Positions 1,967-46,327 of a stretch of DNA of 64,000 nt are shown piece after piece. Both the position numbers and the translations under genes were made by a program. The stretch's first letter is position 1, and every line of letters starts with the position of its first letter. Below the pieces are notes generated by a model. It did not search any database. It was not told where the DNA came from and saw nothing but the letters and a program-made list of their open reading frames with translations. Source of the stretch: Catajapyx aquilonaris (Eukaryota); the NCBI GenBank assembly GCA_000934665.2, contig JYFJ02000011.1, positions 124,001-188,000 on the forward strand, read 5' to 3'.

Positions 1967-2484
1967 AATTGTCATGATCCAATGGAAGTTGACATTATTG
2001 TGGGTACATTCATTTTGGCAAAAGTTTCAGGGGGGGAAACAAAGACACATTCAAAAACTTAAGTCAGTCACGTTTTATGATAATTCGCATATTCACTAGC
2101 TACTGCTAATAATGTAAGGTCAGAATAAGAATTATTCCCATGTGTAGGATATATGCATGAGAAAATTCTGCAGATATTTTTTATTGCACATCACGTGAAG
2201 TAGCCACCACCCATTCTACCCCCCCCCCCCTTTTTTTTGCAGGAAATGTTGCGAGTGGTTGCTATGCTCAGTTGCCAAATTTCCCCCCGTACGTAAGACC
2301 GGCACTACGGGCATAAATAAATTACAATCCAGCTCGAACTTTGACCCAACTTCAGACATACTAAGCGTCATCAACTGAACCATACGGTGCATGCCGCTTT
2401 CTTGCCTCTTACAGTTGATCCGTACTTATATTTCGACCTAGCTGCATGAATTTGGCAACCGCGCAAAAATTGCACCACGTTTCG

Positions 2485-2536
2485 CCAATTGCGACGTCAC
2501 CACCCACCGGCCCTCTTCGAGCGGAGGGTATAAAAA
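2485..2536 (+). promoter_or_regulatory. Compact promoter: CCAAT box, CRE-like site, TATA box
   Basis: CCAAT 2485-2489, CGACGTCA 2492-2499 and TATAAAAA 2529-2536, immediately before an abrupt GC-rich structured segment. Confidence 0.6.
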
Positions 2537-2557
2537 GGCAGTCGAAGGTCATGCTCG

Positions 2558-2960
2558 GTACATTTCCAGGGCTGGTGCATCTGCCTTTTTCTCTTGTCGA
2601 AGGGGGAAAGGGAGCTCGATGTCTTGGTACATCGACTGGAAACATGTGCTGTCCCGAACGAAATAACGCTTACTTCTGAGGCTTACTTCGTTCGGGCGGG
2701 GCACCTTCGGGTGTACCAGCCTGGCCCTCTTCCCTTGAAGGGGCCGGCCACGTAAAGCGACCTCGCTACCACCTGGGGCGGCCCTCGGGTCGTCTCCGGT
2801 GCTCTGAGGTGTGGTCGGCCCCCGTGTCTTTACGGGGGTTGTGGGGTTCAAAGGCGAGGGGGCCTCTTGAGGAAGCTGTTTGGTGATGGGGTGTGCGGTA
2901 CCGCTTATGGTACCGCCTCTGTGCCGCCTCACACCGCAGCTTCTGCAGGAGGACACATTT
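2558..2960 (+). ncRNA. Candidate structured non-coding RNA of unassigned family (~400 nt)
   Basis: GC-rich island in AT-rich DNA with at least 9 stems. Many pairs are G-U on the + strand. C(UUCG)G tetraloop at 2705-2710. 3' hairpin followed by ACA-ttt. Starts ~30 nt after the TATA box. No credible ORF. Confidence 0.55.
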
Positions 2961-3105
2961 CGGCAGCGTTGTCAGCGGTGCAGTGGTTTGCTTGTGTATT
3001 GTTGTGTTGTCATAATAACCAGCTAGGTGCCTTTTCCTTTTCAATGTGTCGTCAAGCTGAAATTGACCACTCACGAATAATAGCATCAATAATTAATCCC
3101 ACTAA

Positions 3106-3232
3106 GGGCCGGTTTCACCGAGCTTGGTATATGATAAAACCAGGTTTCTTTAGGAAAATCCCATACAAACAGATAGGGATTTTGAGAAAGAACCCTGGTT
3201 TTATCATATACTGAGCTCGGTGAAACCGGCCC
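3106..3232. mobile_element. PIF/Harbinger (Tourist-like) MITE
   Basis: Near-perfect palindrome with TIR GGGCCGGTTTCACCGAGC...GCTCGGTGAAACCGGCCC, flanked by TAA on both sides (3103-3105, 3233-3235). Confidence 0.85.
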
Positions 3233-3498
3233 TAAAGCATTCCAAATCAATGTATAATTCCAAGTAATCAATGTTTCTGCTGAATAAATGCAGTCGTCAA
3301 TAATTTCTGATGGTGACCATTGCTGTAAGTTTTCCCCACAATGACTGTATATCCATGGGAACTCAGAGAATTGTTACTGTTCTGGTGCGGTATCGTCATT
3401 TTGTAAGTAATTGACGTGCTTATCCTGCCATTTGTTGTTTCGCAAAGTTTGTGTTTCAGAATGGTTTTCAAAATTAGTTGATCCCGTATTCATGGTCG

Positions 3499-6400
3499 AT
3501 GCTTGGTCTGACTCGTTCTTCAAGAGTAAGACCCAGCAGTGCAATGTCGTCGGAACTAACACTAGAGAAGGTTTGTTAGTCGGTACATCTGTAATGTTGT
3601 CTTAATTACACAAACCATCTTTTGATGTCAGTTGGATGATGATGAAGAGACAAGTGGTTGTGTCAACTACTTGGGTGCTAAGATAGAAGTGGCACGTGAC
3701 TGGATTTCCAGTTGGACATCTGAGCATGACAGAGTCTTTAAAACTACAATAGTGGTCATTGTCTTCCTTTTGTTTAATGCCTACCTTGCAGCTGCCATTT
3801 GGTACTGTGTGTCTAATGACAACTCGGTGGATTGGGAAGATGGCCTGGGATTGTTAATTATTTTAACTAGCTTCCTGTACGTTGGATTCATCTACTATTT
3901 CCTGGTGAAGCCCTATTTGTCGGACTGGATATGCAATACATGCTGCGTACCATTTCGAAAGGTTTGGACCTGGAGGTAATGTATTAACGCAGCATTTATA
4001 CCCTACAAATTATATCTAGACATGAAATAATGCAAAATCATATTGCGACAATAGAGAAATTAAAAATGGTCTTGTTTTGTTACTTTTCCTTCCAAACATT
4101 GCGTAAAATGTGCTTCATGCCAGGCAAGTTCAAGTGATGATGATGTGTTACATTTCAGGTACGTTCCTTGGGTTGTAATATTAACGTCTTTGGTCGGTCT
4201 GTTGATCTATATATTTGTGGTTACGGATGATTATGACAATAGACTCAGATCTCTGCTAGGAATAATAGTGATGATACTTTTTGGCATATTTTACTCTCAA
4301 CACCCTGGAAAGGTAGGTCACTTGGGAGACACTTTTATGACTCTATGACGATGTGTGTGACATTTTTGCTTCTCCTGTTAGATACAATGGAGACCAGTTG
4401 TATGGGGACTGTCCCTGCAGTTCTCATTTGCATTACTAACCCTACGATGGCATGCTGGAAGACTGGTAATGGACGCCATTGGAAGGAAACTCAAAACCTT
4501 TTTAAAAAGTGCTGAACCGGGGGCCGAAATGATGTATGGCCACCTGGCAACTGACAGTCAATTCATCTTTGCTTTCCAGGTACGTTGACTGATTTGGACT
4601 TGAAGGCCTAACTTTTTCCTTTCCTGTTTAAAAGTAATTGAATCTTTATATTTCAGGCTCTGCCTATTATATTTTTCTTCTGTGGATTTATACAAGTTTT
4701 CTACTACTATGGGATAGTACAGTGGACGGTCAAGAAGCTCAGTTATCTACTTCAAGATACTATGGGCACCACTGCTTGTGAATCAATGAATGCCGCTGCT
4801 AATATAGTATTTGGAATGGTTGGTATACGGAGCAACTGTTGGAAACTCAATTGCTTTATTGTTATTATTAGTGACTCTGCATAATAATTATTTTTCTCCA
4901 GAGTGAAGCACCCATCATTATCAAGCCGTATTTAGCGAGCATGACAAAATCTGAATTGCATGCCGTGTTGACTGCAGGATTTGCTACAATTGCTGGTATA
5001 CTTGTTTTCAAAAATGATCGTAAAGAGCACTCTGGGCTGACAATCGTCTGTAACGAAATTTTATTCTGTCGGCATGGTACTCTTGTCAGTGATATTTTGT
5101 GCCCACTGTAAAGGTAACGGTAGGCCTACTTATTATTATACCCAGTTTACTCTCAGACATCCGGAATGCTTATTCTTGTCGTGTTTTGCAATTCACTGAG
5201 ACAACTTGTTTCAGGCACGGTGATGGCTACATACATTAAGTTTGGAATAGACGCAGGCCACCTTCTAACAGCTTCCATAATGGGTGCACCAGCCGCCTTA
5301 GCAATGTCCAAACTCTTCTATCCAGAAGTGGAAAAGTCAGTCACGAGATCTAGTGATGTTCAAATCACACGTGGGTAAGGTGGAACTGGATATAGCTGGC
5401 TTGCATAGCCACGGTTTTTGGAGAACACTGGAGAATTGTTAAGAAAGCATCTGGTAATGCCAAATTCTTGCAGGGTGGAAGTGAACGTCTTGGATGCAGT
5501 TGCTCAGGGTGCCACCAGTGCTGTAGGGTTGGTCCTGTGTATCACCGCCAATCTCATTGCATTTTTCTCTGGGATCGCGTTTCTCAACAAACTCCTGTCG
5601 TGGTTTGGCAGCTTACTCGGAGCTGATTATATCACTTTTGAAGTACGTAGACTGCAAGTGTGAAACGCCTCTGTACTGTGACAACAGTCATGTTGTTAAA
5701 GGGCCATTGTCTCATAATTCAAAAAGTTTGATTAAAAATCAGTGGAATGTGAAAATTGATGCCTGTCATCAGTCACCATCAGTTTTTGAAGGTCATGAGA
5801 GGTGTTAAAAGCACAATTTCAAGTTGTAATTATTGTGACCACAGGAGCTGGCCACTAATATTTACACCGTTAGTCGAATAATGCTAGCAAGGTTTCACTT
5901 TTTCAGTGGCTACTTGGAAAAGTGTTCTATCCATTCGCTTGCTTGCTTGGTGTACCATATGAAGACTGTGGCAATGTTGGCAAACTTCTTGGTTTGAAAA
6001 CTGCCGTCAATGAATTTGTAGCATATCAGGAACTGTCCAAGTACAAAAATTGCTCAAGTATATCCGTAAGTATTTCTCTCCTGGTCACTGACTTGTGCAA
6101 CTTCTCTGTTTTTGGTGATGACTCATATGCTTCATGTATGCAGTGTGAGTGATTAGTAGGCATTATTTTCCAATTTGCTTTTACAGACGCGGGCTGAAAT
6201 CATAACCACATATGCCCTATGCGGATTTTCAAATCCTGCATCCATCGGAATCCAACTTGGAGCCTTAACCGCAATGTGTCCTTCCAGACAGTCAGACTTG
6301 GCTGAGATTGTCATGAGTGCAATGGTTGCTGGAATCTTCGCTTGCTGCACCAACGCATGCATAGCAGGTAAAGTGTCAGTATAATTCCCTCCCTCCTGTC

Positions 6401-6513
6401 ACAAATAAATGTGACCCCAGACTCATGTGCTTGGACAATTATGGGGAAAAGAATGTAAATAAGTTTAGTTTTTTTTTTTTTTTTTTTTTTTTGCAGGTCT
6501 CCTGATAGACTGA
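3499..6513 (+). CDS. SLC28A: SLC28/CNT concentrative Na+/nucleoside cotransporter, copy 2 (complete, ~11 coding exons)
   Basis: Exons ~3499(or 3544)-3570, 3632-3975, 4159-4312, 4382-4579, 4657-4818, 4902-4995, 5215-5374, 5474-5643, 5907-6066, 6187-6367 and 6497-6513. Motifs IQWRPVVWGLSLQF, FIFAFQALPIIFFF, GMSEAP, GFATIAGTV, GLKTAVNEFVAY and YALCGFSN. The 3' intron positions match copy 1. Confidence 0.93.
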
Positions 6514-6816
6514 ATCACGATTCACGGACTAAATCATCTTCAGGCTACGCAACAATTTAATTTCTTTTTGGCATGTCAAGTGTTAGATCTGTTTAAAGAT
6601 TGTGGCTCTCTGAGTTGGTAAAGAGATGAATTCAGAAAGTTTCATTTGGTTAGTTATGCATGGACTTTATGGATGGATGTTCTCCAATGTGAAATACTTG
6701 CAGAAATAAAGGACATGATTTTTAAAAATCTACGCTCTTTGGAAATGGGGTCGCTTACAAAAGAAATATTGAAATTCTGACAATGGATTAATCAATTACT
6801 AGGCATGCACACGGTT

Positions 6817-6970
6817 AAGGTGCATTTACATGTGAGCGATTTGACGAGCAAAGTAACCAATATTGTTTGAGGTGAAAGTGACAATCGATTTTCACCTCCA
6901 ACAAGTTCAGCATTGTTATCGCTCGGTGATGACATCATGCAATCAAATCACTCACATGTAAACGCCGCTT
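6817..6970. mobile_element. MITE, family shared with 22982-23149
   Basis: TIR AAGGTGCATTTACATGTGAGCGATTTGA...TCAAATCACTCACATGTAAACGCCGCTT. A second diverged copy occurs in the window. Confidence 0.8.
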
Positions 6971-15401: not shown

Positions 15402-18400
15402 TTACAACTTTTCCAGCTTGATTCGTGGCATCTGCCTTGTAATATCTCCAGCGTCAGGTTGAGGGTAGCTGTACCCTTGCCAACTGTAGCTAGCAGGCTG
15501 AAAAATAAATCAGGGTAATATTAATAATATGACTTTGCTATTTTAAACAGTACACTGGATTCTAATGCAGCAGGCAATCTGCATAAACTTTGCAACTATG
15601 AGTCAGATGCATGTGCACTAACCTGTGCATGAAGCTCAGCCGTTGAGACTCCAATAGGGTCGGGAAAGGGGCTGGGCTGCAGCACAGATGGCTCTCCTCC
15701 TGGGTACGGGTATGGAAAATGATAAGGAGGGTTGTGCTGGTAAGTTGGGTAAGGATATGAGGGAGGAGTTGGCTCGTATGGATATGGAGAATATTGACTG
15801 GGGGGTGGTGGTGGTGGATGTGGAGGATGCGGCGCATTTGGGTATATTGGTGGGTAAACTGATGGTGGTAGTGAGGACGGGGTTGGTACTGGAGGCGCAG
15901 AGGAGAGCATGGCTGCTGATGTGAATATCGGGGTAGAGGTAGGCTGAGGGGCTGAGGTAGGAGGAGGAGGGGCGGTTGCTGCTGATGATGAGGTAGTGGG
16001 TTGCGGTTGAGGTGGTGGCGGCTGAGGCGGAGTTGGTTGCTGAGCAGGTGGTGCAGGTGCTGGGGGGGCAGGCGGGGCAGGCGGGGCGGGTGCAGGGGCT
16101 GTGGCAGGACTTGCGGGAGGGGCTTGTGGCACCTGGGCAGGTGGGGTAGGAGGAACTGATGTTTGCGGAAGTGATGGAGGGGCTGGTGACTGCAGGGCAG
16201 GTCCATTGATTGGTGGTGCTTGTAATGTGGGTGGTTGCAATGCAGGTGGCTGCAATGCAGATGATTGTAATGGCGGTGGCTGCAGTGTTGATGGCTGCAA
16301 TGTGGGTGGTTGTAGAGCAGGCGACTGCAAAGATGGTGGCTGCAATACTGGTGACTGCAACGGGGGTGGTGGTTGCAATGACGGAGGTTGCAACGATGGT
16401 GGCTGTAATGGTGGCTGCAATGTGGGCGCCTGCTGCTGATGCTGCTGTGTGGGTTGCAGATGGTTTGGTTGGTGTTGTGTTGTGGTGCCACCACTAATGG
16501 GGGGCTGATGCTGGTTGTTCTGGTGTGACGTTTGCTCCACAGGTGCTGACTTGGGCCTGCTGTCTCCTCCTTTCTTGAGTTTCTTCAACTGCTTAGCATC
16601 CTTCAAGTTGTTAACATATGACAGGAAGTTGGACACAACCTTTGACATCTCATCAGGACTGTCCTTCATGCGATACTCAATAAGGGCCTTGAACAGGGTC
16701 GTCGAAACATAGTAGGCCATTTTGGCGTCCTCTTCATTCTTCACAACACACTTGGCCTGAAATTGGGCATTTTAAAACTACCACTTCCAAATTGGATTCT
16801 AGGTGAAGAGAATGCATCAGAACTTACCAAGCTGGCTAAAAGAGCACCCAGTGGTCCAGTTGCAAGTGGCTCGTCCTCCTGTTTGAATCCCTTCAGCTCA
16901 TCATTCTGAGCTTGAGCTTGAGCCTGGGCCTGAGCTTGGGCCTGGGCTTGAGCTTGTGCCTGAGCTTGGGCAGCAGCAGCCGCAGCAGCGCTACAAAACA
17001 TTATTCACATTACGCATAACTCAACAGCACATTGAACCTTAGATAAATGCACAAAAGCAAATTTAACAAGCAGTCAATGGATTTTCAGTGTGGTATGGTT
17101 AGTTTATAAAAATGCATAGGAAGAAGAGTGGCCACCTCTCCTTTTTGTTCCTCGCTGCACTCTGCTTGCTGTTGGAAGCCCCTCTCCCTCCTCCTCCGTG
17201 TCCTCCTCTGCCTCGAGCAGGACCAGGCATGGGACCAGAAGGTGCAGGAGGAGGAGCAGGACCAGTGGAGTAACCATCTTGCGGGAAGGATGAACCAGGA
17301 AAACCACCAAAGTGTCCTGGTCCTCCAGGGTAGTTTGACTTGAATGCATTGCTGTGATGGTTTTGAGATGGCTGTTGGGAATTTGGGGGAGGGGGAGGCG
17401 GACCGGGAGCAGGGGGTGGTGGTCCAGGGTGGGACATGGGACCTCCAAACGTGGATGGAGGACCAGATGACACGGATGATGGAGAGTCTGTAGGACCAGA
17501 TGAGGAAATTGCTGTGTAGTTGGGACCAGAGCCGTAGTTGGGGGTGGGGCAGAGAGGGCCAAAGTGGGAGCTGGGACCAGGCATGGCAGGGTTGTCATGG
17601 TTCACAGAGGGTCCCACAAGTGGACCAGATCCTGGGCCTGATGATCCAAAGTTTGGTCCTGAGCTTGGAACAGATCCAACATTTGGGATCATACTGCCTC
17701 CCGAGCCTGTTCTAGGTGGCGGAGGGCCTGGAGGTGGTCCACCCATCGGACCAAAGTTGGTGCTTGAGTTATGAACAAAGGTGGAGTTAGGCACCGGTGC
17801 CATGTGAGGCGGACATGTTGGGTCTGGGCTTGGACCCATTGGACTTGAATCACGGCCAGGGCCAGGTGGTTCAGGGGCAGATCCAGAGTTGGGACCAATC
17901 GTAGGTGGCACTGAGTTAGTTCCAGATGTAGGTGGGACCGGAACATGGTTTGATCCAGACTCATGACTGTTATTTGTGACATTGTGGCCATGGCTGCGAG
18001 ATGATGTGTTTCCTGGACCCGACAGCCCACTAGACGGCCCACCAGATGGTCCACTAGATGGGACACTTGATGGACCGCCAGTTGGTGCAGAGCTGGGTGC
18101 AGGACTTGGACCATGACTAGCTGATTTAGGAGCTGCATTAGTAGTATTCGACTGTGGAGGGGGTGGTGGCTGAGGTGCACTGGAAGCAGCTGGGGGTGGA
18201 CCAGACCCAGTGTTGGGACTAGGACCGCGCCCTGGTCCAGGACTAGGGCCATGGTTCGGTCCAGGACTAGGAACAGAGTTGTGGCTGCTGCCACCTGGCG
18301 CTAACGGACCAGGTGGCCCCATCACCGGTGCGTATGAATTTGGCCCCACTGACACACACCCCGGGTTAGGACCCGAAGGCCCCATTGATGGCCCAGAGTA

Positions 18401-20986
18401 CATACCTGGACCCATGCTCATAAGTGATGGACCAGACATGGGGCCACACCCAACACTGGAAGTAGGTGGGACTCGAGGCCCATTCTGATAGTACGGCCGC
18501 ATAGGACCAGGACTGGAGTAGCCATAACTAGGTCCATGTGACACCATTGGTCCATGAACCATGGGCCCAGGCTGGCAGTACCCATACGAACCATGGTGGC
18601 TCATGGGTCCCATACCAGAAGAAGCATGCCCCATAGGACCTTGCATCATAGGCCCAGTGGATGGCACGTGGTGCATAGGACCACCATGAGGGCCCATGGG
18701 TCCTGACCCCAAGGAACTTGGGGAAGAAATGTGAGGTCCCATTGGCCCCATGGAAGGTCCATGGGGTCCAATCATAGCAGAGGAACAGTGCGTGGCCATG
18801 GGGTATGCAGAGGGTCCATGTGGTCCAAGGTGTGGGGCATACGGCCTGGCGGGACCAGTCACTCGCGACATGTTGTAGACAGGTCGGTATGACGAGGGTG
18901 GGTAGGAAGGCTGTGGTGGACCACAAGGGGAGGGAGAGCCGGCATGGTTTCCGCTCATCTTAGGTGATGACTGCTGGTCCATCTTGGCCTTTTTGGACCT
19001 GGGCTGGTCGTTTTCTGATTCTTCCTTCACCTTCTCAGCACCCAGAATTTCAGTGTCAGGTATGCGGATGTCTTTTGCATTAGGTGGTGGTATCCCACTG
19101 CCACCTCGCTCTTTGGACCATGGAGCTTGACCTTTGGGCCATGGGTATGCGGCATCATCTGCGAAGTAATGTGTGTAAGAAATTGATGTGACTGTAGCAT
19201 AATATTGCACACTACAAATTATTATTAGGATTTGAATGAAAGACAAAAAGGCCCCTCTAGTTTAACTGGACCTGTTGACTAGATTAGACCATGCTCTAGA
19301 GATGTGACAAATACTTCAGAAATAGTAATTTTAGGCTTGTGGTATTGTTGATTAAAAACACTAGTCTTAAGAATGTCCAGTTGCAGATATCATCACTAAT
19401 TTACATAAGCAAAAGATTACTGCACAACTTATCACCATCTGCAATGTAAACTAATTAAAAAATCTGAAGGGGTGTCGTCCCGTGGTGTAGGTGCTTGCAT
19501 GTTTGATCCTATTTCCTGCAATATGCTGCATTTTCTTCCATGCTATTTTCTTTTTGTAGCTATATACACAGATTTTTGGGAAGTAACTTGGTTGACATCA
19601 GCAAACTATTTAGCTCAGGACATCGGGTGCAAAAATATTATTTATCTATTGCAATGACTACTATAACTCTGACTCATTATGCACTCGGAGTACATATCTT
19701 TCCCAACCCAATGAACTCACTTTTTTTCCAGTTATTGAAACTTACCTCGGACAGTCTTTATTAAGGAAATATTTTTGCCTTCACTCTTTTCTATTTCGAC
19801 ACACTTCTCCAACAACTCTACCCTATTGTGTATCTTTGAACCGCTTGAGGTCTCCTGAAAGCAAAGAAGAGCAAACGCTGACAATGGTTTACACACATCC
19901 CCAAAATATTCTCATATTCTTTTATGCCACGAAACCAGTGAACTTACAATGTAATTTGACCGGTGTTTACATCCCATTAGGTGATTAAACATGGACACTG
20001 CTCCTCCGTGTACCGAGCAGAATCTACAGACGTAAACCGGATCCCTTTCTTCGCTTTCAGGAACATATTCCTCAACATAATGCAAACCTACAAGAAATGT
20101 TTTGTGGAAATGCTAATAATCATTATTCTTCGTGGCAACTCACCTATTGCTGGGTCTTTGCTGCTTTCTAGGATTTCGTGCAAAGCGCCTGGCCTTTTCT
20201 TTTTAGGACTACTACCATACATCCCCTTTTCCGAGTTGCCTGCAAGTTTATCGTCTCCTTGTTCTCCATCCTTTCCTGGCAATTCCATCAGTCTTTTGTA
20301 CATTCCTTCTTTCTGCAAGGAGACATTTAAAAGTGATCCACATGCAAAATCACAAACGGCAATTCTGTCGACAACTAATGCTCTACCTTTTTATGCTTTG
20401 CACCATTGAGATGAGTTTGCAGCATTGCTTCACTGTTGAGTTCGAGATTGCATATCTGAAGTAAGACACATGCATGTTAATTATTATCAGTATGTGGGGA
20501 TCATAATTGGTTCTACATTGCACATAAAATTTTCATAGCATTTGTATTTTAACATCTGATGCGGTACAAAGTGACCATTACTCCTTTTGTGCCAAAAAAA
20601 TCATAAATAAATGCATTTAATAATTTAAAAATAACTTTGCATTAATGATTGACAACATCCTTCTACATGAGGCAAATATGAAACTCACAATCGCTATTGA
20701 AAATTTTACTTAAGGACGAATGAAAATTAAATGAAATAATTATAACACAGCCATACATTAAACTTACTTCACAAAAATACACTGGTTTCTCTTTTGGCGA
20801 GTTGAAAACTCCTGTCCCGAAGTCATAGTCTGAAATGTCATAGAGCAAATCGTCAGTACCACAAGTCATGTGAATTCACGTATTTTCTGGACCTTGTTCG
20901 TTGCCTTCTTGCAGAAGACTGGATAACAAAGCGGCCACGCCACTGGTCCTCTTGAACGCCTTCTCATAGTCCACCTCGTCGTCCAT
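15402..20986 (-). CDS. Matrin/U1-type C2H2 zinc-finger protein with long Pro/Gly/Ser-rich low-complexity region (CG7065-like arthropod family, tentative)
   Basis: ATG at 20986. Zinc fingers YFCEICNLELNSEAMLQTHLNGAKHKK and YVCRFCSVHGGAVSMFNHLMGCKHR. Conserved-looking blocks IGLHYVEEY, YPWPKGQAPWSKERGGSG and VKNEEDAKMAYYVSTTLFKALIEY. Large exons 17136-19159 and ~15623-16756. Last exon ends RIKLEKL* at 15402. Confidence 0.75.
16210..16430 (-). repeat. Coding 15-bp tandem repeat (LQ[P/S]P[x] pentapeptide, ~14 copies)
   Basis: LQPPLQPPSLQPPSLQPPPPLQSPVLQPPSLQSPALQPPTLQPST... in ORF 15596..16744. Confidence 0.85.
16906..16990 (-). repeat. Coding poly-Ala plus (AQ)n repeat
   Basis: AAAAAAAQAQAQAQAQ... 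in the exon spanning 16827-16991. Confidence 0.85.
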
Positions 20987-24514: not shown

Positions 24515-27500
24515 ATGTCGAAGAAGCCACGTTTGTTCAGGTTGAAGGGGAGGAAGAGCCTGGACGAGACGGAGGATGGGAGGAGCGGGGGAGGACCCAG
24601 GCAGACCACAATATCCAAGTTTTTTGTCAGACAGGTGAGAGGAGCACGCCGGCGCATTGTCTGGAGATACATTACTTATTAATTAATATATGGGGTAATT
24701 ACCTAACATTACTAATATAATGGCCATTTTAATCAATGTATGGGTAATACCTTAGCTCACTAACATAATTACCATTTACATGTAATATAAAGAACATGAC
24801 TAATGCAATTGTACCATATTTTAATTTAATTAATATTAGAGTAATTACCTAACATTGTTATAACAATTACCGTGTAATTATATTCACGAAGATTCGTAGA
24901 TCCTCTCCGACGTGTGATCGTCTTACAATATGCATTATTTGTTATTTTTTTGCAGAAATCTCCTGAAGCGTCAACTAGCAACACACCGGCAGCAAAGAAA
25001 CCAAAGCTTGAAGAAGAATCAGGGGCGTTTACCACTAGAGAGCCGGTTGTTAAGAAAGCAAGGGTTGAAGAGGAACCTGGGGCGTTTGCCACTAGAGAGC
25101 CGGTTGTTAAGAAAGCAAGGGTTGAAGAGGAACCGGGGGCGTCTACCAGTAGTGGGCCAGTTGTTAAAAAGGCGAGGGTTGAAGAGGAATCGGAGGGCAT
25201 CGCAGGGGTGTCGAAGCAGACTTTGGACAAGCTGAGCATGTTTTCTTTAAGTGGAGGGAGCAGCCGCAAAACGGTTGTGGATAATGGCAAATATGCGCCA
25301 GTAGATAATGGCAAGGATGCACCAATAGATTATGGCCAAGATGTTACAGAAGGTTGGACAGTTACGGCAGAAGTGGCACTGCAACATAAGGCTTATGAGA
25401 AAAAAGGTGCTTCTGAATCGAATGAAGATTTCCTCAAGTTTGTTCGGAAGCCTAAGGTCAAATACACGCCTTTGGAGCTGCAAGTGCTGGACTTGAAGAG
25501 AAAGTATACAGATGCTCTATTATTTGTGGAGTGTGGATACAAGTACAGATTTTTTGGAGAAGATGCTGAGGTGAATAGATCAGAACCTACGTATATATGT
25601 AATAGATCCTGAATTCAGTGGACACGTTTGTCCAGTATAGTATGTTAGTGTGGTTCTACTTTTTGATATTATTGGTATTATTAATATGCACATTAGGTTG
25701 TTTTGTGCGTATATGCTGACTCATTTTAACTGTCAGTATTGCCGCCTAGGCATTGTCGACTGGTCGTGCAGAAATTGCATGTACACATAGAATGGCATAA
25801 GCATGAGTTTTCAGAGGCTATATACTGGCACACTGCCACTGATTGAAACTGAATTAGGACAGATGTCCACTTCCACAGTATTAATGATGCATGCCCACAT
25901 TTTAAATTCAGATTCGCATATTTTGTGATGATCAGGAAGTGATTGTACAAGTACTTTACCAAGAAATAGTGATGGCACAGAGCCCATTTTCGGCCTTCTA
26001 GAGGAAATGTGCTACATCCACAATTTTGATTACAAAAATAATATCTTTTATTTCCAGATTGCAGCACGTGAACTGAACATATATGCTCATGTGGACCACC
26101 AGTTTATGACTGCCAGTATCCCAGTGCACAGGCTGCAGGTTCACGTGAGGCGGCTGGTGTCCAAGGGATACAAGGTTGGAGTGGTTAACCAGACTGAAAC
26201 TGCAGCTCTGAAGGCTGCTGGTGTAAACAAGAGTGCACCCTTTGAGAGGAAACTGACTGCCTTGTACACCAGAGCCACACTGATTGGAGATGATATGGAA
26301 TTAAATGAGACAGTATTAGACTCATCTGATACCAGCAACTCAACAGAGGGGCTAACAGCATATATTTTGTGTGCCATGGAAGTCATGGTTAATAAGAAGG
26401 TTACCATTGGGATGGTGGTAAGTAATAATGGGTTATTTTCATTTGAGTTGCACATCTTGATTAAATGTACCATCACATGCAGGCAGTTCAACCCTCAACA
26501 GGAGACTTTATATATGACCAATTTGAGGACTTGCTTGGCTTCCCTGTCTTCTCCTCACGCCTGGCCCACATTCAACCTGCCGAGATACTTCTACCAAATG
26601 AACAAGTGTCAGATGGCTTTATCAGGGCAGCTTCTGACTCACTGTGGCAGGAGGAGAGGGTTCGGATTGAGAGACTACCTATAGATTGGTTCCAGTACTC
26701 GGATGCTCTCCGAAATTTGACCCGGCTGGAGGAGAACGGAAACAACTCTTTTCAAGAGCTGGCTGTGCAGCCACCAGCTGTGGTTTCCTGCGCAAGTGCA
26801 CTGGTGACCCATTTGAAGGAGTTTGGCCTGGAGAGAGTGCTTCATTTTGGAAGGTATATTGTGTGGAAGATTTTCTGAGGGGCTCATATATCTAAGCTCT
26901 CTCTCTCTCTGAACAATTTATGCAATTTATAAATTTAATGTTTTTCAGGTTAAATAAATTCACAACTGTAGACTCATATTTACAACTGGATGAAATGGCA
27001 GTGCACAATTTGGAGCTCTTTTCCAACTCTGCCACAGGCAGTCTCAAGGGCAGTTTGCTATGGATATTGAACCACACTAACACCAAGTTTGGTGCCAGGT
27101 AAGAAATTTACAGTACTCAGTCCTAACATAGCTGAACAGACTTATATGGCCATCCTAAGGCAGAATTAAAGCAGTGTACTTGGACCCAGACGTTGTAGCA
27201 AAGTGTTTTTTATTTTTTATTTTTTTAAATGTTTAAAGGCGATTTAGAAAAGGTCATTAATGTGAAACTTCTTAAAACTTGGCCTGCCTGCATGGAAACC
27301 GTAATATTTATTTTTAGATTGCTACAGCAGTGGATATCACATCCCTTGAGGGACATTACTCAGATAAGAGAGAGACAAGATGCTATTGCTGAGATTCTTG
27401 AGTCTTCAACTTCTCCTCTGTTTACACAACTGAAAAATGCATTGAAAAAATTGCCTGATTTAGAAAGAGGACTGACAGCTGTGGCGCATGGAAAAGTAAG

Positions 27501-30500
27501 TAAAATGTGCAAAATTTTTGCAGAACCTTTTTTATTGTCTGCACACATGCTCAGATGCTCCACAATTCTCCTGACCCTCTTTTCAGAAATGCTATCAAAC
27601 CTAGAGAAAGTCAGTTGTAACTCAATTTCACACTCTGCCAGAAGTGCAGCATCATCTGCTTAACCCAGATATGCTAGGAATTTTTTTTGTTGAATTTTTG
27701 AACTTTTTTTTTTTTTTATTAGTTCCCAAAACACAAATATGAGGTTAGCCTATTTGGAATCCTTAACAAATTGGCTGGTCCAAACCTAATTTCTGTATGA
27801 GTATCGGTTCTGAAGGTATGCGCTGTTGATGATATGTCAATTGTTGGGTGCATATAAAAAGAAATGCCGCAAATTTTAAAAAATCCAGTTCGACTGATGA
27901 TTTTTGTACATTTTTGTGGTAATTTTTTTTTGTGTTTGGCGTTTACTTATTGCCATAAATAAGAATAATTAAGCATGAATTCATGATGATTATCTTTATT
28001 TGATTTTGTATTTCTAGTGCAGTCCTTGGGGTTTCTACAGCATCATCGCAGCCCTGAAGAAGCTGTATCAACTGCTGAGCAGCATGGAAGATCATGTCTC
28101 AGACATTGAGAGCATTTTTCTGAAGAAGTTGTTGACTGGAATAAGTGAAGCATTTAGCAGTGTACATGAGTACATAAGCAACATCGATGAGAAGGCAGCT
28201 AAGTGAGAATATTCTCATAATGCTCTGAAAGCTGCATGTAGTGGACCTTATACGTAGCAGAAACATATCTACCATGGGAGGGGGGCCCATTTCATAAGCA
28301 CAAGGTGAACAAGGCTTAAAGGGCGGAGAGCAAGCCCACCGCAGGCGCAAATTTTTTGGGGGGGTTCCAGGTCACACGAGCTTAGGTGAATGTGGGACAT
28401 TTGAATGGTTGTGTATTTAATGAAATTGGTAGCACTTTTTCCAAAAAATCATGAATTAGTAATTTCTAATGCTATTTCAAACTGTCCTGTATATCGTCGT
28501 GGTCCGGACAAAATTGCGTCACGGTCCGGATTTGGACTGCTGTCCACCAGTTGAATAGCCCTGGGCTAGGTTGTGATTGACTATAGTCACCGTAGGAAAT
28601 GGGGATAGTCTTCTGTTGTTACGTGTCGCTGGACATACCCCGACCCAGTACAGGCTTCCGTAGCCAGTAAGGGGGAAGCACTTTTGTATTGATAAGGTCT
28701 GATAGTCTGGGTATCGCAGCAACTGCTGGCCCAGATATCTTTCCCCCCTATTGGTGTATAATCAGGTGGTGCACCTGCTGGCCCAACTATGACACCAATA
28801 AGGTATCAATGCCAAAAGTAGACTTGCCTATAAGATTTGTTTATGGATCGGTTAGGATATGAAAGTCCGGGCTGCACAGATACTCCTGGCAAAGATATTT
28901 CTTCCTCTCACTGGAAGTATACTCAGGCGACGCGCCTGCTGGCCCAAGTATGACCCCGTTCGGGCCCTATCCCCAAACTATCCCTGCCTGAAATGAAACA
29001 CAATGTATTTCTATTCAACCAGAGCTGGTCCATGAGGAGAGGTCCTTCCTTTTCGACCTCTGCTGACTGACTGACTAACTCGGCTTGAGGCACCTTTATT
29101 TATTAACTCAGTTCATGCACAGTATCGTGGGCAACGCGTGTTCACAAACGACCAGCAAACGACCATTACTAAGGTGTCATACCTGGTTACTAACAACAGG
29201 AACATGGGTACCGGAAGATGCCATACAAACGATCAGAACAATGACAGTGAACACAAATCCGGAATGCCAACAAACAACAACGTTAACAATATGGAATGTG
29301 CAATTTGCATTTTAACAACAACAATAATAATGGGTCATTACATAGCAGAACCTGTCTAGTGCTGAAGCAGATAGCATTTTTATGTCCCTTGATAAGCAAA
29401 ATCCTGTCCATAGTGGAATTAATACTGCAGGTAAGACCATTTCTCAACTTCAGAGAACTGGAATATGAGTGAAAAATGCATCAGCTGCACGTGGGTGACA
29501 AACGTTGCCCTTGCATGCCAAACGTTGGTGGCAGGTCCAACAAATTATGTGTTTGAAAACCATATGGACCTGGCACACCAAACAAAGTGTTCATGCACCT
29601 TTTTTTTCCCCTAATGCAGTGTTAACTGACAATAATTATTCCACTATACTGGTGTTACTGTAGCAGCCCCCTGTCACTTCTATCCCAGGCTAATAGAAAA
29701 AGCTGTGCTGTTATCCCTTCCTGCATTGGCGCTAGTACATCTGCAATGGAATCATGCTGTGGAACTCGCTGCGCCATAGCTACAGCGACCCTGATGGCTC
29801 AACTATGCATTAACACCTAGAGTTAGGTGTTATAAATTAGTCGCAATGGGGGAAGGGATAACAGCACGCAAAATGGCGGCAAGTGACACGACCTCTTCTT
29901 CTTAGACCATGTACTGTAGCATAATTATGTGTAATAAAATCTGCGTTGTTTTCAGAGAAGGGAACAAGACACACCTTTTCAAAGATGTCTCAGTTTACCC
30001 AGCAGTACACGATTGCACCTGCAGTATGGAGGGTGTTATGCAGGATTTAGACAACTTAAGGGAAAGGATCCGAACTACCCTGAGGATATCATCCTTCGAC
30101 TATAAGTGTGTTAACGGTCAAGAGTACCTCATTGAAGTGAAAAACACTCAACTCAAGGCTGTACCATCATCTTGGATGAAGATCAACTCGTAAGTGTTTA
30201 ATAGTAGCTGCACCAAAATACCAACAGAGAGAGAGAGGGAGAGAGGGAGAGAGAGAGAGAGAGAGACAGAGAGAGAGACAGAGAGAGACAGACCCTAAAT
30301 AAGTCAATGTTATAATGCCAAATGGTGGGAAATGCAGTGAATAATATAGTCAGCAAGTTTTCCTGAAAGATTAACCCAGCAAATGACCAACAGGATTGTC
30401 AAAAGTGTGTGATTGTGGATTCAAATCCAAGCATCTTTTATGGCGGGAAAGTTTATCACTAGAAGTCAGGAAGTTACACTATAAAAGGCAGAAATGTGCA

Positions 30501-44146: not shown

Positions 44147-46327
44147 CAGGGGTGGGAAACTTTTTTCTCCGTGGGCGCATCAAGATTTTTAAAAAATGGA
44201 CGGGCCACATCTAACAGAAGAAATTTCAACTTATGAAAAAGTTTACAATTGCGTATATATCTATCCTTTTAAACGAACTTCCATTAATTGCATAAATTAT
44301 CATTAAATTCTCTGAAAATTGATAAAATGAGCTAAATATATCAATGAAAATGGCCTGTATAAATAAAAAACGAGTTTTGTGAATTTAAAAGAATTAAAAA
44401 GAAAGCTTAATTGGGGATGCTGTACCTAGTAATGATGGTTGTGGGGATATTAATAAGAAGGAAGTTGCAGCTGCTGCTTTAGAACTTAACTAGGTAAATC
44501 CCCTGGGGTTGATGCTATTTGTTTGGAAATGGTGAGGTGTGGCGGTAATGATGTAGTTACCTTTTTGACTAATTTATGTAGGGTTTCTTTTGATAATGGT
44601 GTAGTTACTAGGGATTGGAGGGATACTATTATAGTACCTCTGTATAAGGGTAAGGGAGATGTGTGTGACTGCACGAATTATCGTGGCATTAGTTTGTTAA
44701 GTGTACCAGGGAAAGTGTATGCTAAGGTTTTGATAGAAAGAGTTACGAGGGTCACAAGTCAGAGAATACTGAATATTCAGAGTGGGTTTATGTCGGGTAA
44801 GAGTTGTGTAGATCAGATATTCTGTGTGAGACTCGTGATAGAAAAGTATTTAGCTGTAAACAAGAAGGTTTTTGTTGCCTTTGTAGACTTAGAGAAAGCA
44901 TATGACACAGTAAGTAGGGAAGGTTTGTGGGAAGTTATGAGTCTCTATGGAGGGAAGGGCTGCCTGCTGGAGGCTGTAAAGTCATTGTATGAAGAGAGTA
45001 TAGCTTGTGCTAGAACTAGTGGGGGTTTCTCTGACTGGTTAAACATTAGTGTTGGGGTTAAGCAGGGTTGTGTCATGTCTCCCTGGATATTTAATTGTAC
45101 TTAGATGCATGTGTAAGGGAAGCTATGGTTGAAGGTGTAGGAGTGCAGTTTGGCGATGAGTTAGTTAGTCACTTGCTGTATGCGGATGATTCTGCTCTTC
45201 TGGCGGAGAGTGAGGCTGATTTACAGTTGATCCTATGCAAGTTAGATAATGTTTGTGAAGAGAGGGGTATTGAGGATTAACGTAGATAAGACTAAGGTAT
45301 TGGTATTTGAAAGAGGACAGCAGGTTTCTCCTTGTATGTTGCAGGTACGAGGAAAACTGGTTGAGCAGGTCAGCCAGTTTGTGTACCTGGGTAGTGTCTT
45401 TGGGAGTAATGGTAGAATGGATGGGGAGATTGATAGGAAAGTTAGTTCTGGGTTGAATGTGATAGGTGCCACAAGTATTTAGTAAGTTTTCTAGGGATAA
45501 GGACTTGTCTTCTGCCTGTAGGTTGTCTGTCTATTCTCACGTTATTGTTCCTTCACTTATGTATGGTAGTGAAGCGTGGGTTTGGTCAGATAGGCATAAG
45601 AGTAGGGTGTTGGCTACAGAGACGCGTTCTCTCCGGGCTGTTTGTGGGGTTACCAAGTTGGATAGGATTAGGAATGAGGAGATTTTGCAGAGGTGTAATG
45701 TTAAGGAGACTGTTAAAGATAAGGTGTGTAGGTCTACTCTAAGGTGGGTTGGGCATGTGGAGAGGATGAAGGAGGAGGAGATTGTGAAGAAGGTTTATTT
45801 GGGTGGAGTAGTTGGTAAGAGGGGCAAGGGTAGGCCTAGGAAGACATGGTTGGAGCAGGTGGGTCAGTGTCTTAAGGGTGTTGCTAGTGTTAAGCCGAGA
45901 TGTTCATGTGTCAATAGGACCATGGACGTGGATGGGGCTAGGGTTGCTTGTTTGGATAGGTGTAAATGGCATAGGTTAATTAATGGGTAAATAGGTCTGA
46001 GGATAAGGCTTCCTTCGCTCCGGCGAATAGAGGGGACGTCCCTGGTGGAGTCGATGAGGTGCAAGGGTGGTGCCATACACGTCGGCGTGGCCAGGGCGTC
46101 CGGAGTAGTGGGTGGTGGTGGGGGGGAGGCTTGTTTTGCCGAAGTACCGCGTTGTATAGTGTAATATTTAAATTTAATAAAGAGTGTGTGTCTGAGGTGG
46201 GCAGGGGTGGGGTGTGGGACGGGTTGTTTTTAGGTTTATTTTTACTAGTTTTAATTATTATTAGTTCATATGTTGGGTTAGCTTGCGTCTCCCTTCATCT
46301 CTGACTACCCCTCATAGGGAAATGTCG

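Follow-up and report, generated by a model that had tools for sequence, protein, structure and literature searches.

A strongly structured GC-rich island behind a predicted Pol II promoter between two SLC28 genes, and its possible role as a 5′ leader

The 64-kb window analysed here, by which is meant the whole stretch of 64,000 nt, contains two copies of a concentrative nucleoside transporter gene (SLC28/CNT), and in the spacer between them lies on the + strand a GC-rich island (positions 2562-2960) that follows a set of promoter-like motifs. The question raised by this locus is whether the island represents the gene of an independent structured RNA, which an earlier note had likened to telomerase RNA and to sca/snoRNAs, or whether it belongs to one of its neighbours. 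Our verdict is based on intrinsic sequence evidence together with the partial presence of the island in one RNA-derived assembly (X1). The observation of a structured island is confirmed and statistically strong, but the analysis does not support an independent gene resembling those of telomerase RNA or scaRNAs. The interpretation given in the earlier note is partly supported. The island would appear to be the promoter-proximal transcribed part of a + strand Pol II unit, and the likeliest, if still tentative, reading is that it forms the first exon of SLC28 copy 2, a non-coding and heavily folded 5′ leader.

Promoter motifs and fold of the island

The GC content of the island is 0.60-0.655, with a peak of 0.61-0.655 at 2601-2900 as compared to 0.305-0.49 inside positions 1-2400 (200-nt windows), and it is one of nine stretches in the 64-kb window with a GC content of at least 0.55 (300-nt windows; mean 0.416, standard deviation 0.067). 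Its base make-up on the + strand (A 0.15, C 0.27, G 0.33, T 0.25) is skewed towards G over C and towards T over A, and at 2400-2560 the observed/expected ratio of CpG is 1.26 as compared to 0.50 for the window as a whole. The following features delimit the island.

2485-2489, + strand: CCAAT box by sequence reading, at about -75 from the predicted start
2493-2499, + strand: CRE-like GACGTCA by sequence reading, matching 7 of the 8 positions of TGACGTCA, at about -65
2529-2536, + strand: TATA box TATAAAAA, 33 nt upstream of the Inr-like A2562
2559-2565, + strand: Inr-like TACATTT, with the predicted transcription start near A2562
2961-3012, + strand: G/T-rich stretch in which GC content and excess structure drop away, with a weak donor-like GCG/GTGCAG (GT at 2978)

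The CCAAT/CRE/TATA promoter described in the earlier note is borne out by the presence of all three motifs, and the GC-rich island that it had placed about 30 nt past the TATA motif begins with a rise in GC content approximately 33 nt after TATAAAAA. The CRE consensus is TGACGTCA and the arthropod Inr consensus is TCAKTY, from which the ACATTT at the start of the island is one mismatch away. On sequence grounds, the motif set at 2485-2565 is that of a predicted mRNA-type Pol II promoter.

The segment 2558-2960 folds on the + strand with a minimum free energy (MFE) of -209.1 kcal/mol, as compared to -162.5 +/- 6.5 kcal/mol for shuffled sequences (z -7.1; 0 of 100 shuffles as good), and on the - strand with an MFE of -159.8 kcal/mol (z -5.1; likewise 0 of 100). 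When it was run together with nine other GC-rich pieces of 350-401 nt, the island reached z-scores of -7.8 (+) and -6.0 (-), as compared to -2.8 to +1.9 (+) and -3.7 to +1.4 (-) for those pieces. Apart from the inverted repeat at 3105-3233, 150-nt sliding windows showed excess structure on the + strand (z < -2.5) only where they started at 2551-2851, which places the onset of the fold at the predicted start site and its end near 2960-3000. The structure is made up of three domains, for which z-scores were obtained from 200 shuffles per domain and strand.

2565-2722, + strand: domain 1 (D1), a four-way junction of -77.1 kcal/mol, z -8.1 (+) and -4.6 (-)
2569-2583/2708-2722, + strand: closing helix of D1, 15 bp, in the MFE structure
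2584-2595/2600-2611, 2616-2622/2629-2635 and 2653-2662/2687-2696, + strand: hairpins of D1 in the MFE structure
2723-2864, + strand: domain 2 (D2), a long irregular stem with inner GC hairpins, -78.1 kcal/mol, z -2.8 (+) and -2.0 (-)
2723-2731/2856-2864 and 2740-2751/2811-2822, + strand: stem helices of D2 in the MFE structure
2865-2953 (to 2950 in the MFE structure), + strand: domain 3 (D3), a 33-bp hairpin of -48.5 kcal/mol, z -4.8 (+) and -3.2 (-)
2953-2960, + strand: ACACA-UUU tail with ACA at 2953 and 2955, a putative 3′ end

On the + strand none of the 200 shuffles was as good as D1, D2 or D3, while on the - strand this was so for 0, 7 and 2 shuffles, respectively. D3 carries an apical loop of 6 nt and an 8-nt bulge (2917-2924) on its 3′ side only. 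The three-domain layout proposed previously is retained in the MFE structure (D1 2569-2722, D2 2723-2864, D3 2865-2950), and each of the eight helices listed with it is complementary by Watson-Crick or G-U pairs. For the C(UUCG)G hairpin proposed at 2701-2714 this agreement is partial: its strands are complementary, but it is rivalled by the longer 15-bp closing helix of D1, which is the choice of the MFE structure.

The + strand MFE structure contains 150 pairs (82 G-C, 42 A-U and 26 G-U) with a mean pair probability of 0.82, and only one symmetric A-C mismatch is found against its 26 G-U pairs, whereas the - strand fold has 7 G-U among 127 pairs. The bias of G-U pairs towards the + strand which the earlier note had pointed out is therefore real, and its proposal of a + strand structure at the RNA level agrees with the position of the fold directly behind a plausible Pol II core promoter. 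The G+T-rich composition of the + strand accounts for part of the G-U asymmetry. In shuffles that keep composition, the + strand z-score is still stronger than that of the - strand in each of the three domains.

RNA families, Pol III and coding potential

The covariance models of Rfam 15 gave no match at gathering threshold in the whole 64-kb window, snRNA genes included, in agreement with the previous failure to recognize a signature of RNase P/MRP, 7SK, SRP or a U snRNA. A permissive scan of 2300-3200 returned only five sub-threshold matches (E 0.93-7.3; 15-19 bits as compared to gathering thresholds of 42-140), one of which, to ctRNA_p42d at 2532-2597, overlaps the first 36 nt of the island, the other four being located outside it. 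Transcription by Pol III is unlikely because a run of five T residues (2586-2590), to which the earlier note had drawn attention, lies approximately 25 nt into the predicted transcript; it is the only run of at least four T residues in the island, and there is no terminal T4.

That the island might encode the telomerase RNA of the host species is suggested by its size of approximately 400 nt and its CCAAT/TATA promoter, both of which resemble those of vertebrate TERC, and by the claimed terminal ACA, which is indeed present and lies 3-5 nt ahead of the proposed end. According to PMC8480181, searches in arthropods had failed and by 2020 no telomerase RNA of this phylum had been identified, and a literature search by us yielded none from a crustacean. 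The telomere repeat of the host was assumed to be TTAGG, as for arthropods, whose repeat is given as (TTAGG)n in the available part of PMC8977481. As stated previously a TTAGG template, which in animal telomerase RNA spans about 1.5 telomere repeats, is missing: none of the five 5-mers or five 6-mers of (CCTAA)n occurs in 2540-3000, and templates of repeat length plus 2 (7-9-mers) for nine motifs gave no match on either strand of 2485-2999. A clear H box is equally missing, the sole ANANNA in 2562-2960 being found at 2661-2666 within the D1 hairpin 2653-2696. There is no hinge between D2 and D3, as the domains adjoin with 0-3 nt between them, and the MFE structure of D3 contains the one-sided 8-nt bulge in place of a two-sided pseudouridylation pocket about 14-16 nt from H/ACA. 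Animal telomerase RNAs have a template-adjacent pseudoknot with a triple helix; in the island, the MFE structure, computed by folding that does not predict pseudoknots, has the U5-containing segment 2584-2595 paired as a plain hairpin. Known insect telomerase RNAs are small and PSEA-driven in the account available from PMC11892584, the lepidopteran one being 135 nt in length with an snRNA-type PSEA promoter and devoid of an H/ACA domain, and the same source gives 239-599 nt as the animal size class. Membership among telomerase RNAs and among H/ACA RNAs and scaRNAs fails, owing to the absence of a template, a hinge H box and a pocket, and the likeness to both classes drawn in the earlier note is not supported. 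The island also has no H/ACA domain and matches no Rfam family, those of telomerase RNA included where the library has them. Within the limits of sequence evidence a telomerase RNA is excluded, and we regard this reading as close to refuted.

The island is not visibly coding, as judged from its reading frames. Its 140-codon - strand frame matched no Pfam family and its 152-codon + strand frame gave a single sub-threshold match (E 0.14). In a protein search the + strand ORF 2756-3100 had no matches; in a phmmer search against 1.84 billion representatives the - strand ORF 2552-2971 matched only P0121, a tandem-repeat pseudo-protein (E 7.8e-5), and this match was dismissed as compositional.

The island also lacks the marks of several repeat classes: neither a tRNA, and hence a tRNA-like or SINE head, nor tandem repeats were detected, and it is not flanked by a pair of terminal repeats. 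A second copy in the 64-kb window was not found, the best other blastn match being 27 nt in length (E 0.011). Three probes of 21-24 nt, searched by exact match and thus suited to near-identical DNA only, had no hits in metagenome contigs or in viral contigs. A densovirus or parvovirus ITR remnant was set aside in view of the asymmetric G-U and A-C counts and the lack of viral ORFs nearby.

Transcription and the flanking SLC28 genes

Contigs of X1 skip 12 short GT..AG introns of SLC28 and neighbouring genes, and intergenic bins are empty, from which it follows that X1 is RNA-derived. As 20 of the 44 sampled words (0.46) of 2500-3000 are contained in this assembly, at least part of the island is transcribed; no variant letters are listed within 2485-3000. 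Among the 15 of 17 joints and the 8 of 122 contig pieces listed, none shows a joint leaving the island. Depth in X1 is 1.97 for the bin 2137-2670 and 42.9 for the bin 2671-3204, the latter inflated by a multi-copy, MITE-like inverted repeat (3105-3233; depth 103-177) which is situated 145 nt downstream of the island and folds with a z-score of -16.7 on the + strand. An attempt to derive the extent of the exon from the share of words was discarded: an exon at 2562-2808 predicts 0.46, but with a wide sampling error, and contig depth cannot rank the parts of a gene.

The assignment of the flanking genes is based on matches to the Pfam family Nucleos_tra2_C, in copy 1 by ORF 271-789 (6.8e-44) and in copy 2 by exon 5409-5663 (3.5e-12). 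The last exons of copy 1 taken from X1 contigs are 65-210, 296-455, 564-742 and 867-1284, with joints that fit 1-3 bases further right, and the gene ends near 1284, approximately 25 nt past an ATTAAA at 1254-1259; the island is therefore not read-through from copy 1. Elsewhere in the window an MSH3 exon (26055-26375) is 81-83% identical, over the aligned 76% of the query, to two transcriptome proteins and to the MSH3 protein of Penaeus indicus; for crab proteins the identity is 68-69%, and for one protein from krill it is 69%. The host was accordingly taken to be a malacostracan crustacean, closest among the database sequences to penaeid shrimps. The start of copy 2 may be described by the following features.

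3632-3975, + strand: most upstream coding exon of SLC28 copy 2 that is verified by RNA, without Met; donor end from the joint 3973>4157 (+2)
3310-3324, + strand: candidate first coding mini-exon of copy 2, ATG GTG ACC ATT GCT before the donor GTAAGT, phase 0 and in frame with 3632
3355-3402, + strand: alternative candidate mini-exon of copy 2, with ATG and the donor GTAAGT, phase 0

Six GT..AG joints within copy 2, from 3973 onward, are seen in X1 among the 15 of 17 joints listed. Position 3632 was read from the acceptor ...gatgtcag and has no joint behind it. The contig that contains the 3973 joint extends only 93 letters further upstream, and the 5′ end of the mRNA is therefore not covered by a single contig. 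A protein search with the N-terminal exon 3632-3973 yielded no protein of greater length in the length classes covered, and relatives thus provide no N-terminus. As 3632-3975 contains no Met, copy 2 needs upstream exons, and its first plausible ATG is located 750 nt downstream of the island on the same strand. Neither AATAAA nor ATTAAA occurs on the + strand between 2562 and 3283, so that any polyadenylated RNA started at 2562 has to extend at least into the ATG region of SLC28 copy 2.

Verified donors have A at +3 and G at +5, each in 11 of 12 cases, whereas the two donor-like sites at the edge of the island, with GT at 2978 and 3027 after exon ends at 2977 and 3026, have G at +3 and lack G at +5. 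GTRNG sites are present only at 2809, 2841, 2891 and 2893, all of them within the island in D2 and D3. The island contains short uORFs of 15, 11 and 46 codons, and a leader left unspliced to 3310 would carry nine upstream ATGs. The 46-codon ORF (ATG at 2886) was considered as the N-terminus of SLC28 copy 2 and rejected, as splicing at GT 2978 would leave phase 2, while the other exon end, 3026, coincides with the stop codon of the ORF. A weak TATAAT is found at 3254.

Readings of the island and comparison with known systems

If the island is the leader of SLC28 copy 2, the CCAAT box, the CRE-like site and the TATA box would bring in Pol II, and transcription would start near 2562. In the computed structure, three stacked domains of about -209 kcal/mol in total begin to form in the nascent RNA approximately 7 nt after the cap, and a donor in or just past the island may then be joined to the ATG exon at 3310-3324 or 3355-3402 and onward to 3632. 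Strong cap-proximal structure is known to hold back ribosome scanning in cap-dependent initiation, and such a leader might serve as a translational brake or allow helicase-dependent control of copy 2. What favours a leader is a correctly spaced mRNA-type promoter (CCAAT at -75, CRE-like site at -65, TATA at -33, and the Inr-like element), the location on the same strand of a gene whose first verified exon is without Met, and the lack of a poly(A) signal between the predicted start and 3283. The lack of a discrete small-RNA 3′-end signal, with neither a hinge H box nor an Rfam family, and the share of sampled words present in the RNA-derived X1 point in the same direction, and transcription of the + strand fits the skew towards G and T and the G-U count of 26 as compared to 7. 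Against a leader stand the missing island-leaving joint among those listed, the edge donors without A at +3 and G at +5, and the GTRNG donors inside the island, use of which would cut the fold, as well as the upstream ATGs of an unspliced leader. In addition, for an mRNA that is to be translated, -209 kcal/mol of structure with its onset 7 nt past the cap is extreme, the z-score of -7 to -8, the closure of the domains and the boundary at the start site look like a selected RNA fold, and the TATAAT at 3254 could be a separate promoter of SLC28 copy 2.

These last points lead to the reading of the island as an independent, non-polyadenylated structured ncRNA of approximately 400 nt (2562 to ~2960), transcribed by Pol II from its own mRNA-type TATA/CCAAT/CRE promoter and representing an undescribed, non-Rfam family, for example an RNP scaffold, which we consider unlikely, if still a serious candidate. 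It would explain why excess structure extends from the predicted start to near 2960-3000, why neither shuffles nor other GC-rich pieces come near the z-scores of the whole island (-7.1 to -7.8) and of D1 (-8.1), and why all domains fold better on the + strand, with long-range closing helices whose G-U pairs are typical of RNA and not of DNA palindromes. It is also in keeping with the poor donors at the 3′ edge, the single copy in the 64-kb window, the presence of part of the island in X1, and the want of an ORF with a family match (Pfam, and one repeat-like match by phmmer). However, there is no known 3′-end device, as a hinge H box, an Sm-like site (sought by eye) and a poly(A) signal are all missing, no Rfam family is matched, and position and orientation suit a leader of SLC28 copy 2 equally well. 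Moreover, the promoter is of the mRNA type, whereas independent sn/TR genes of Lepidoptera use a PSEA-type promoter in the available text of PMC11892584.

The island might instead be non-functional GC-rich DNA, either a foldback or palindrome-rich remnant of a mobile element or a local palindrome expansion, that is incidentally transcribed behind promoter-like motifs. The - strand is also beyond chance (z -5.1 to -6.0), as DNA inverted repeats would be, the MITE-like element at 3105-3233 indicates that mobile DNA has landed in the spacer, and the G+T-rich composition of the + strand by itself favours G-U pairs. This reading appears improbable given the single copy in 64 kb, the absence of tandem repeats and of terminal inverted repeats around the island, and the coincidence of the start of the structure with TATA +33; three repeat places named in X1 (of four) are outside the island, which, unlike the MITE, has no variant letters listed, and a decaying palindrome should give A-C mismatches as well as G-U pairs and not one against 26. 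A Pol II primary transcript carrying small-RNA hairpin precursors, with D3 as a pri-miRNA-like hairpin, is very improbable: D3 is an imperfect 33-bp stem, near the length of Drosha substrates, and lies behind a Pol II promoter, but its 6-nt apical loop, its one-sided 8-nt bulge and its very high GC content argue otherwise, and no miRNA family is matched, the only miRNA hit, to MIR1515, being sub-threshold (E 3.7; 15.8 bits as compared to a gathering threshold of 140) and falling outside D3.

To our knowledge, crustaceans have almost no ncRNA annotation. If the island is an independent RNA, it would represent a new family of large structured ncRNAs in crustaceans, a single-copy, three-domain RNP-scaffold type whose protein partners would be worth seeking. 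If, as we tentatively favour, it is the leader of copy 2, an unusually strong cap-proximal fold would precede one of the two tandem copies of a nucleoside transporter gene, and the locus would provide a test case for the divergence of duplicates via translational control.

Among known systems, box H/ACA sno/scaRNAs resemble the island in their terminal hairpin with ACA behind it and another 3-5 bases to the end of the structure, but the island lacks their hinge and two-sided pocket, has its ANANNA in a D1 hairpin and, at 400 nt, is three times their usual size. Animal telomerase RNAs, namely vertebrate TERC and the invertebrate ones of PMC8480181, have in common with the island the size class, a 3′ hairpin followed by ACA, a high GC content and several domains, and for the island transcription by Pol II is plausible; however, the island shows no template, no H box or two-hairpin H/ACA domain, no CAB-type loop and no Rfam match, and its promoter is not demonstrably of the snRNA type. 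Arthropod Pol III type-3 RNAs such as 7SK, RNase MRP and U6, for which PSEA plus TATA is the promoter and, in Lepidoptera, the mark of Pol III genes according to the available part of PMC11892584, resemble the island in having a TATA box some 30 nt upstream of a GC-rich structured RNA of a few hundred nt, but the T5 at +25 would stop Pol III and no Rfam family is matched, those of 7SK and RNase MRP included where the library has them. From the highly structured, GC-rich 5′ leaders found on Pol II mRNAs the island departs in the strength of its fold, which far exceeds compositional expectation (z -7 to -8), in its three closed domains, in its weak end donors and in having no joint to the gene among those listed. 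As a general class such leaders limit cap-dependent scanning, and what the island has in common with them is its place directly after a TATA/CCAAT promoter, its orientation along the gene that follows, its non-coding nature, its short uORFs and its very stable cap-proximal helices.

Reading frames across the island

The minus frame of the GC-rich folded island (window 2552-2971) gave a sole match in protein space, P0121, a 435-aa pseudo-protein made from a tandem unit of approximately 57 aa, with an E value of 7.8e-5 and 48% identity over 44 aa. This match is most likely compositional, and the island may be distantly related to a GC-rich satellite elsewhere. On the plus strand a 46-codon ORF (window 2886-3026) was observed, which starts inside D3, the 3′ hairpin of the predicted fold, in a good start context (gtgATGg), and whose product would have MGC at its N-terminus and a hydrophobic tail rich in Cys at its C-terminus. 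A protein search with the frame overlapping this ORF returned no homologue, and the ORF probably represents a chance uORF.

Repeats near SLC28 copy 2

A MITE-like inverted repeat is located at window 3105-3233, with arms of 58 nt that are 90% complementary and spaced by 13 nt, and with a fold z of -16.7 relative to shuffled sequence. Its depth of 103-177 in X1, the sequencing run judged to be RNA-derived, together with indel variants and loose contig ends at 3235, indicates that the genome contains multiple copies of this element and that it is transcribed from some locus. SLC28 copy 2 carries a further high-depth repeat in its 3′ region (window 6409-6942; X1 bin depth 146), where approximately 38 letters at 6848-6852 were replaced in several X1 contigs and loose ends were many.

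Other genes and elements of the window

15596-19261, minus strand: two open frames rich in Pro, Gln and Ser, both very long (391 and 720 codons)
24878-27663, plus strand: MSH3 gene (MutS_I match, 8.9e-14)
44490-45990, plus strand: retroelement remnant (ORF 44490-45104 matching Pfam RVT_1, 7.5e-19)

The Pro/Gln/Ser-rich frames constitute two of the several GC-rich islands in the window, and neither had a match in Pfam; the same was true of the ORF that follows the RVT_1 ORF (45466-45990, plus strand). For the MSH3 gene, the best matches among named relatives were MSH3 of Penaeus, Ptychodera and crabs.

Motif in the predicted promoter region

Within the predicted promoter region (window 2485-2515, plus strand) ACCACC/CCACC is positioned 9-10 nt downstream of CCAAT, and this combined motif overlaps with the CRE-like GACGTCA. 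The ER-stress element is CCAAT-N9-CCACG, the layout of which the CCAAT and ACCACC/CCACC arrangement resembles.
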